DNA of 29,362 nt from an uncultured Erysipelotrichaceae bacterium (GTDB taxonomy: Bacteria > Bacillota_I > Bacilli_A > Erysipelotrichales > Erysipelotrichaceae): assembly GCA_964457525.1 (NCBI GenBank), contig CAYWGS010000006.1, forward strand, positions 1-29,362, written 5' to 3'. Below are positions 4,748 to 5,040 of the stretch, in pieces. How positions within the stretch are numbered: position 1 is the stretch's first letter; each line of letters opens with the position of its first letter. The notes below the pieces were generated by a model that was given only the letters and a program-made list of their open reading frames with translations, was not told the DNA's origin and did no database searches. Made by a program: the position numbers and the translations under genes.

Positions 4748-5040
4748 ACACCTTCAGAATCGCTTGAAATGGTGGTTTATGAGCTTTACCGACCACGTAT
4801 CACGTCGGAACTGCCGGCGAAAGTCACTGGAAGGTGGTCGCAAGCGACTACCTTCCTATATTTTGTACCGAAATAAAAATTCGAGCAGGTAATGTTTTTG
4901 CCCTAAAAGACGAAGTGAACTCAAATCAAATTCATCCAAAACAAACGTTCCTCCATGCTTCAATACTTAAGAGCAAGAACGTATCATACCAAACTCAAAC
5001 AATTCTTAAGTGAAGATACGGTAGTAGGTAAGAATACCCA
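4748..5040 (+). repeat. diverged, AT-shifted partial second copy of the 5' part of the 1035-1843 structured element
   Basis: Alignable with 1035-~1400. For example, 30 of 45 positions match for 1041-1084 vs 4754-4798. The hairpins at 4803-4819, 4829-4856 and 4862-4866/4885-4889 are conserved. It contains no ORF conserved between the copies. Confidence 0.6.

Follow-up and report, generated by a model that had tools for sequence, protein, structure and literature searches.

Two diverged copies of one non-coding, hairpin-bearing sequence lie in direct orientation near the left end of the window studied here, a 29,362-nucleotide (nt) stretch of DNA from an uncultured Erysipelotrichaceae bacterium. 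Each stands just behind an immunity gene of a polymorphic-toxin locus. What are these repeats, and what could they do at the ends of toxin-immunity cassettes? An earlier note, made from the sequence alone, took them for a functional RNA. We think it likely that both are copies of one family of origins of transfer (oriT), tied to elements of Bacillota that carry a MobP3 (Pfam MobL) relaxase. Homology, anatomy, adjacency to relaxase operons elsewhere, covariation, the decay of the second copy and the co-transfer of cassette and oriT support this reading directly.

The existence of a second, diverged copy is clear. Global alignment of copy 1 with copy 2 gave 157 identities in 209 aligned columns (75%), blastn aligned 4803-4947 with 1134-1279 at 74% identity (E 4.8e-19), and a repeat search returned an ungapped block of 82 nt (1167-1248 and 4836-4917) that is 77% identical. 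A hidden Markov model (HMM) of the family, searched with nhmmer, matched both copies (1057-1213, E 6e-39; 4770-4882, E 2.5e-23). The repeat is shorter than first described, however. It had been drawn to 5040 in copy 2 and to ~1400 in copy 1, while homology stops at ~4948 and ~1285, respectively; the subfamily homology of copy 1 ceases near 1276-1285, the aligned tail to ~1400 is noise, and the sequence past 4948 contains a fragment of an rhs core. The ‘terminator-bearing 3′ part’ that copy 2 was said to lack is outside the repeated module. The direct copies are ~3.67 kb apart, close to the ~3.7 kb given before, and they start 14-40 nt after immunity-gene stops at 993 and 4719 (the latter had been placed at 4716). 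A shared degraded protein-coding gene, which the earlier note had named as an alternative source of the similarity, was considered and rejected. No open reading frame (ORF) is common to the copies and the indels of ~50, 9, 1 and 1 nt are not multiples of three; therefore the module is not a decayed gene. The only coding-derived sequence is the rhs fragment at 4957-5076, outside the module.

About 60 homologous copies were recovered from Bacillota genomes and metagenomes. The route to them was through homologues of the window's IS110 transposase in other toxin-immunity arrays whose contigs contain the module (contigs and loci are given L numbers). It was seen once after a SUKH immunity gene in L036, and in L037 within a 2.4-kb block 86% identical to window 1059-3497. 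The block CCTTTATCCTGCACC, which contains TATCCTGC and is common to the L036, L037 and L038 copies, was used as a search pattern. It gave 23 true matches in the GTDB species representatives, where the hosts include Tissierella, Hathewaya, Sedimentibacter, Oscillibacter, Anaerocolumna, Lachnoclostridium, Peptostreptococcaceae and Erysipelotrichaceae. A further 31 came from metagenomes, and a profile built from these matches maps every copy. An earlier pattern, ACCGAAATAANANTTNGAGCAGG, taken from the region common to the window copies 3′ of the predicted nick site, had no match in the genome collection; this region is subfamily-specific. Scans of viral contigs returned no match to a 20-mer of the B-box units that follow copy 1, and five matches to a hairpin (i) pattern, all by chance and with dissimilar flanks. 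A blastn search with 1000-1860 (11-nt words) found no match in 72,556 plasmid records or in phages.

The family has a common anatomy. Read 5′ to 3′ on the strand equivalent to the window + strand, direct boxes of the GACCACCT type come first, two or three in number and ~30-60 nt apart, with a variant form (A)CAGCACCT or ACACCT. Next are two inverted repeats, the GC-rich repeat ii (CGTCGGC-ACT-GCCGGCG) and then repeat i (GGAAGGTGGTCGC-TTG-CGACCACCTTCC), in which the 3′ arm doubles as a box. The block TTTATCCTGCACC(A/G)AAAT follows nine nt after repeat i. Copy 1 follows this order, with a degenerate first box, ACACCT, two GACCAC boxes, repeat ii, repeat i, the nick motif and ~88 nt of conserved sequence beyond it. 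The distance from the end of repeat i to the predicted nick is 9 nt in both window copies and across the family. Box positions are shared by all family members. In L082 and L074 every upstream box is ACAGCACCT; the set therefore switches in concert, as expected of binding sites for one protein. In L069 and L084, an insertion of ~780 nt splits the module within repeat ii, and CCGCGTTGC flanks it on both sides.

The usual place of an oriT is between genes, immediately upstream of the relaxase operon. The module has this position in 16 loci (L044, L054, L056, L064, L067, L068, L071, L072, L079, L080, L083, L086, L089, L090, L093 and L094), where it stands 62-75 nt upstream of, and divergent from, a gene for a 142-residue protein. 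In 14 of the 16, that gene is followed by one for a relaxase of 566-637 residues, which belongs to Pfam MobL (E 2e-32) and NCBIfam MobP3 (E 7e-121; 404 bits, cut-off 150). A DUF6103 gene lies ~184 nt away on the opposite side of the module in these relaxase-linked loci. A longer homologue of the 142-residue protein stands beside the module in six other loci, with tyrosine-integrase matches in L041, L052 and L058, and in eight loci a gene for a large serine recombinase, an AAA_25 gene or both are nearby; HTH_36 and excisionase-type genes are also found near some modules. All these loci are integrative conjugative or mobilisable elements. Counting the relaxase-, integrase- and recombinase-linked settings together, the module + strand is antisense to both neighbours in ~30 loci.

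The sequence of the module fits this setting. MOBP relaxases such as RP4 TraI, VirD2 and Helicobacter pylori Tfs4 VirD2 require the hexamer ATCCTG, within a nick consensus (C/T)ATCCTG(C/T) that is cut after the G and has an inverted repeat immediately 5′ (PMC3772185). Copy 1 matches the consensus, with a nick predicted on the + strand between 1196 and 1197. Copy 2 does not match it and is counted as a decayed member, since its motif has three C-to-T substitutions, two of them within the hexamer, and is probably not cleavable. The motif is also preserved in copies that were not selected by it: among 12 such copies TATCCTGC is exact in six, one base off in four and several bases off in two, the one-base variants being TATCCTGA in L036 and TATCCCGC in L062b, L082a and L095. 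From these sequences copy 1 would be an orphan oriT with every element intact, which would need a relaxase provided in trans in order to act. Copy 2 is shorter by ~50 nt, a loss that includes one box region, and is AT-shifted. It is a decayed copy, as the earlier note had proposed, and with its mutated motif it is probably dead.

Three hairpins had been described in both copies. Two of them stand: hairpin (i) folds in both copies, including the change of its loop from CTTG to CAAG and the bulged A, and so does hairpin (ii). Folded as single-stranded DNA across both repeats, copy 1 (1128-1200) gives -20.1 kcal/mol (z-score -6.4) and the copy 2 + strand -15.9 kcal/mol (z -4.2; the - strand z -2.7). 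In the 33-copy alignment (A2), standard pairs occupy 78.5% of stem cells, compared with 74.1% in shuffles (none of 500 reached the observed value) and 37-57% when partners were slid. Both sides have changed in 3 of the 7 pairs of repeat ii and in 2 of the 12 of repeat i. The compensatory changes in repeat i convert A-T to G-C or C-G and G-C to C-G, and the outer stem occurs as GGCAGG/CCTGCC, GGGACG/CGTCCC and GGCACG/CGTGCC. The pair-preserving character noted from two copies is thus borne out by more homologues, and selection for pairing in hairpins (i) and (ii) is supported. The assignment of function to the + strand also holds: for example, one pair of repeat ii is T.G on this strand in 16 copies. 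Hairpin (iii) fared differently. It can be drawn in both window copies but is not conserved over ~30 homologues, its downstream partner CAGG or GCAGG occurs in one subfamily only, and its 5′ arm is the nick motif. The C-to-T changes that had been read as G.U-preserving destroy the nick hexamer, turning ATCCTG/C into ATTTTG/T (the stroke marks the predicted cut), and represent decay rather than covariation.

Across lineages, homology changes near the predicted nick. Identity is 86-94% before the nick and 12-48% after it, and the reverse pattern was never observed. L036 and one of the L038 copies (L038c) are 94% identical before and 12% after, and serine-recombinase and relaxase elements 86-89% before and 45-48% after. 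The breakpoints fall 9-25 nt 3′ of the nick and not exactly at it, and so are no proof of joining by a relaxase. On the left, relaxase-linked and cassette-linked modules have one edge in common, the same first box. Between Erysipelotrichaceae and Clostridia the module is 83-97% identical while the flanking genes are unrelated.

The second setting of the family is the one seen in the window. At least 13 loci whose toxin or immunity genes were identified by Pfam or recognised from sequence have a module after an immunity gene, on the same strand and with no relaxase in the 8-10 kb around it, so the link to immunity-gene ends suspected from the two window copies is systematic. The immunity families 5′ of the modules include SUKH/SMI1, CdiI_3, NGO_1070-like, DUF2247 and YxiF, and the toxins upstream include RHS, PT-TG, DddA-like and MafB19 deaminases, Ntox28, Colicin D and PT-HINT/Tox-HNH. 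A contig (L038) of an Aminipila metagenome-assembled genome (MAG) has five modules in 9 kb, one after each of five units of toxin or toxin fragment and immunity gene. In L095, a Colicin-D domain, immunity gene and module are together 97.5% identical to window 221-1276 in a different chromosomal context; the rhs core is only 75% identical, the B-box units are 84% identical and there is no IS110 element. Toxin domain, immunity gene and oriT have therefore travelled as a unit between different rhs genes.

Could a structured RNA made from the + strand, a 3′-untranslated-region (3′-UTR) element or small RNA of the toxin-immunity operon that serves as a terminator, processing site or regulator, account for the same data? 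The module does lie on the coding strand just past the immunity stop in cassette-linked loci, its stems covary, its RNA folds with z of about -2.3, hairpin (i) scored as terminator-like in both window copies in a loose terminator scan, and there is a promoter-like site at 962-989. The wider family speaks against it. A cis-acting 3′-UTR RNA or intrinsic terminator should keep a constant same-strand orientation and have a stem followed by a U-run, but in the ~30 mobile-element loci the + strand is antisense to both neighbours, and the T-run after hairpin (i) is merely TTTAT, part of a conserved family tail TTTATCC. The whole window has no Rfam match at the gathering score, and 950-2150, searched at E up to 10, gave chance-level matches only, all on the hairpin at 1787-1833. 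The most conserved block is single-stranded and equals the relaxase nick consensus, hairpin (iii) is unconserved, and the direct-repeat boxes that change in concert suggest protein-DNA sites. We consider an RNA very unlikely, with a small chance left for the cassette-linked subset. From the fixed place of the module upstream of the relaxase operon and its nick consensus, the hairpins are best read as DNA elements, the inverted repeats of an oriT in the transferred strand, where a G.T pair is equally strand-specific.

An origin in the IS110 element is improbable too. Here the module would be the outer part of a long IS110 left end, an insertion sequence carrying its own oriT, and copy 2 and other solo copies would be remnants of earlier insertions. 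In 12 loci (named are the window, L037, L038, L043, L051, L059-L061, L063 and L073) an IS110-family transposase gene, from at least two diverged lineages, begins 566-906 nt downstream of the module on the same strand, window 1059-3497 is one 86%-identical block with L037, and module and IS110 are similar in GC content (~45-47%). But an IS110 end or bridge RNA should always be contiguous with the transposase gene. The ~30 copies linked to a relaxase, integrase or recombinase and most cassette-linked copies have no IS110 nearby (for most, none within 3 kb), nor do four of the five modules in L038. L095 has the module and both B-box units (84-97% identity) without IS110, and the left flanks of the modules share no target-like sequence. 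The module might instead be a passive conserved spacer without oriT activity, in which terminators and flanking DNA act as a downstream homology arm for cassette exchange. Its position at cassette boundaries, the abutment of copy 2 on an rhs core fragment, which is a known type of upstream homology arm, and the possibility that the pre- and post-nick mosaics arose by homologous recombination in a 30-nt identical block would all be accommodated. A spacer leaves unexplained, however, the fixed position upstream of MobP3 operons, the nick consensus and iteron-like boxes, and an Erysipelotrichaceae-Clostridia identity of 83-95% amid unrelated genes; we rate it as no more probable than the IS110 origin.

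Several points weigh against the oriT interpretation and keep it short of certainty. No relaxase was found in the 29-kb window (the ORFs of 8000-29362 are housekeeping-like genes) or within 8-10 kb around cassette-linked copies. The nick motif was contained in the patterns of both large scans, so its invariance among those matches is partly ascertainment, and covariation alone does not separate DNA from RNA hairpins. The 142-residue ‘accessory’ protein has no match in the Pfam, NCBIfam or PDB families; by our own reading only, it has ribbon-helix-helix character. The 5′ arm of repeat i is missing in four copies (L037, L048, L057 and L062b). In pLS20, the prototype of characterised MobL systems, the nick region is unrelated (PMC5313138) and showed no similarity to that of the module when the oriTs were compared. 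Finally, we infer nicking, protein binding and present-day mobilisation from sequence.

If the modules are oriTs, a possible mode of action can be outlined. The boxes would bind the relaxase and/or a small accessory protein, and the repeats would form hairpins in the transferred + strand to be recognised by the relaxase, which would nick after G1196 and remain attached to C1197. The + strand would then be led into the recipient, and repeat i in the trailing single strand may direct termination. In conjugation, transfer usually leads away from the relaxase operon, which enters last; a + strand nick would give this polarity in the relaxase-linked loci. In the polymorphic-toxin loci, the horizontal exchange unit would be a toxin domain, its immunity gene and an oriT, and the oriT would stand at the 3′ edge of a cassette because each acquisition of such a unit leaves one. 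Copy 2 and the rhs core fragment next to it are what would be expected if a circle of core fragment, toxin domain, immunity gene and oriT had integrated through one crossover within the core. A more far-reaching possibility, which we regard as rather unlikely, is that in many Bacillota cassettes each with their own oriT form an integron-like system that depends on conjugation and an HUH relaxase. A co-resident conjugative element would supply the MobP3 relaxase, which would start at one oriT and end at the next, exporting a single cassette as a single-stranded circle, and the circle would enter a resident toxin locus through homologous recombination at the toxin core or relaxase-mediated joining at the resident oriT. 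In such a system the ~550 structured nt past the nick of copy 1, with their B-boxes and promoter-like site, would be a signal for leading-strand priming or early expression.

Table 1. Positions of the oriT-type modules and neighbouring features in the window.
Feature	Position	Strand	Evidence or remark
Colicin-D-type C-terminal domain of ~4000-residue RHS/YD toxin	35-553	+	Colicin_D E 3e-7; giant RHS/YD-shell gene upstream
Immunity gene 1, cognate to Colicin-D-type domain, directly 5′ of copy 1	553-993	+	ORF
Copy 1, complete oriT-type module	1021-1285	+	HMM match, alignments with ~30 homologues
Variant box ACACCT, candidate iteron	1035-1040	+	
GACCACCT box, candidate protein-binding iteron	1077-1084	+	
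GACCACGT box, candidate iteron	1109-1116	+	
Inverted repeat ii, CGTCGGC-CATT-GCCGTCG	1134-1151	+	folds; 3 of 7 pairs changed on both sides in 33 copies
Inverted repeat i, nick-proximal	1161-1187	+	folds; compensatory changes across family
Box inside 3′ arm of repeat i, candidate iteron	1177-1184	+	
Intact MOBP-type nick motif TATCCTG/C (TATCCTGC)	1190-1197	+	read from sequence; invariant block in alignment A2
Highly structured non-coding stretch 3′ of nick, not in copy 2	1286-1840	+	z -4.75
Tandem B-box units, ~175 nt, each beginning GAAAACGCCACACAGGGCGAACGTG (small hairpin)	1321-1376, 1496-1551		
Promoter-like site TTGACA-17-TAAACT with TG	1670-1698		
Terminator-like hairpin	1787-1833		
IS110-family transposase gene	2117-3355	+	Pfam DEDD_Tnp_IS110 and Transposase_20
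IS110 insertion right end	3451/3452		contig breaks in L006 and L008
Frameshifted orphan immunity-type gene (83- and 52-residue ORFs), directly 5′ of copy 2	4341-4719	+	
Copy 2, decayed oriT-type module	4733-4948	+	HMM match, blastn, global alignment
Inverted repeat ii of copy 2	4803-4819	+	fold
Inverted repeat i of copy 2	4829-4856	+	loop CAAG; 12 pairs including one G.T
Mutated nick motif TATTTTG/T (TATTTTGT)	4859-4866	+	alignments
rhs core-end fragment, abuts copy 2	4957-5076	+	95% identical to main rhs gene in L002, L011 and others

The left 6 kb of the window reads as a cassette array (Table 1). The Colicin-D-type domain, its immunity gene, copy 1, the structured ~550 nt and the IS110-family element are followed by two damaged orphan pairs of toxin fragment and immunity gene, copy 2, the rhs core fragment, the rpsD terminator, rpsD and ezrA. 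An in-frame stop interrupts the first of the orphan toxin fragments (3480-3850) after 3713. With this stop and the frameshift in the immunity-type gene in front of copy 2, the orphan cassettes are decaying; related contigs show the same two ORFs of that gene. A search for the exact immunity protein returned the same locus only. The 120-nt core fragment encodes the Rhs core end LQYLRARTYHTKLKQFLSEDTVVGK..NRYA, ends before the DPSGH motif and matches a 467-residue ORF, and the matching stretch of the main rhs gene lies ~690-810 nt left of the window. The two core stretches form a direct repeat, and between them lie toxin domain 1 with immunity gene 1, copy 1, the IS110 element, the orphan cassettes and copy 2. 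The island is strain-variable. It is missing from L001, L009 and L010, of the same species, in which the rpsD-ezrA DNA is 100% identical, the match to the window stops (at 5198) at the rpsD stop codon, and other genes follow. One short contig (L020, ERZ15185472 NODE_5433, 5755 nt) is a circular permutation of the region between the rhs core repeats, with ends that overlap by 20 nt and a coverage of 0.76; it stems either from a cycle in the assembly graph across the 120-nt repeat or from a genuine excised circle or tandem duplication. In one sample (L013/L002, 1-1400) the Colicin-D cassette is itself orphaned behind other toxin-immunity genes, with ~190 nt of rhs core. No module is present at that junction, which reflects a strain-level rearrangement of the array.

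The stretch between copy 1 and the transposase gene has features of its own. GGGGGGGTTAAGGGGGG lies between the promoter-like site and the terminator-like hairpin, and a transcript running from one to the other would be ~135 nt long. In the Aminipila contig (L038, 3415-3509) the G-rich block and the promoter-like site of 1670-1840 are kept. B-box-like motifs occur 130-150 nt past the nick in many cassette-linked copies and, without IS110, in L095. As a guess, the B-box units may signal single-strand priming or early expression in the leading region. From the L038 sequence we considered an IS110 unit starting at the B-box ~20 nt after GGTATCTTTA; this was rejected, as B-boxes occur in IS110-free copies and both units are present in L095.

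The positions of the IS110 genes relative to the module suggest that insertion is site-specific, with the conserved post-nick region as its target. Hydrogenoanaerobacterium saccharovorans and a Vallitaleaceae MAG encode transposases that are at least 90% identical, a sign of recent spread between families. A search for the exact IS110 protein returned the same locus only, and the insertion ends cannot be set from other copies. In L006 (12360-12480), an rve/Mu-transposase-C element abuts the orphan cassette at the same nucleotide as the IS110 end in the window; the junction is either an insertion hotspot or a site where one element replaced the other. L036 has short GC-rich inserts (..GCCGTTTTC(A/G)C..GAAAATT..) in its IS110 region at 1-30 and 1566-1623, one of them within the transposase gene. 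These inserts resemble a miniature mobile element.

OriTs of the MOBP type are themselves well known, and comparison with the oriTs of RP4/IncP, the Ti borders and H. pylori tfs4 brings out what is particular here. The TATCCTG/C of the module is identical to that of RP4 and tfs4, the inverted repeat stands directly 5′ of the nick on the nicked strand as in RP4, and the family site lies just upstream of, and divergent from, a relaxase operon whose enzyme is of the MobP family (MobP3). Outside the nick octamer there is no sequence similarity, however. The module family has two tandem repeats and four GACCACCT iterons, and it is found in chromosomal integrative elements of anaerobic Bacillota. 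Judged by the search of plasmid records, this sequence family appears to be uncatalogued. Structured, imperfectly palindromic sequences at cassette 3′ ends are otherwise familiar from integron attC sites and from the repeats of recombinase-associated immunity arrays in Bacteroidales. Repeats of the attC type act as single strands and in a strand-specific manner. The module differs from them in its length of ~240 nt and in being an oriT by sequence and context rather than an R″-L″/L′-R′ attC site, and there is no integron or tyrosine recombinase near the window module.

Elements that carry an oriT without relaxase or mating-pore genes are known as iOriT islands (bioRxiv 10.64898/2026.01.13.699239) and oriT-mimic plasmids (PMC10123127). 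The window locus resembles them in this respect and in being a strain-variable island. It differs in having one oriT per toxin-immunity cassette within an array (two in the window, five in L038), and no integrase or attachment (att) sites were seen at the window locus. The iOriT preprint covers six nosocomial species, Escherichia coli, Klebsiella pneumoniae, Salmonella, Vibrio cholerae, Pseudomonas aeruginosa and Neisseria gonorrhoeae, and does not mention polymorphic toxins (bioRxiv 10.64898/2026.01.13.699239). The array itself is similar to the orphan cassette arrays of Rhs and contact-dependent inhibition (CDI) loci, in which a full toxin and immunity gene are followed by 5′-truncated toxin fragments with immunity genes, and fragments of the conserved core serve as homology handles (PMC3150448, PMC3967940), as 4957-5076 could in the window. 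Direct oriT repeats that flank a segment excisable by a relaxase have a precedent in Mob02281 of pBMB0228 (PMC4902927). That case concerns an engineered or plasmid setting and a MOBV-type enzyme, and in the window the nick motif of copy 2 is mutated. We found no title or abstract that describes a conjugative oriT at polymorphic-toxin cassette boundaries, in a literature search that was thin in subscription journals.

The two repeats also carry a general caution. Covarying hairpins with strand-specific wobble pairs are no proof of RNA, because DNA hairpins in a transferred strand leave the same signature. The family described here defines an oriT type for MobP3/MobL elements, which is useful in annotating mobilisable DNA, including that in gut and sewage metagenomes. 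Toxin-immunity cassettes are exchanged and stacked into orphan arrays; to our knowledge, little is understood of the vehicle by which this happens in Gram-positive bacteria. An oriT at the 3′ edges of cassettes, conserved at 83-97% identity across hosts, points to conjugative mobilisation as that vehicle.

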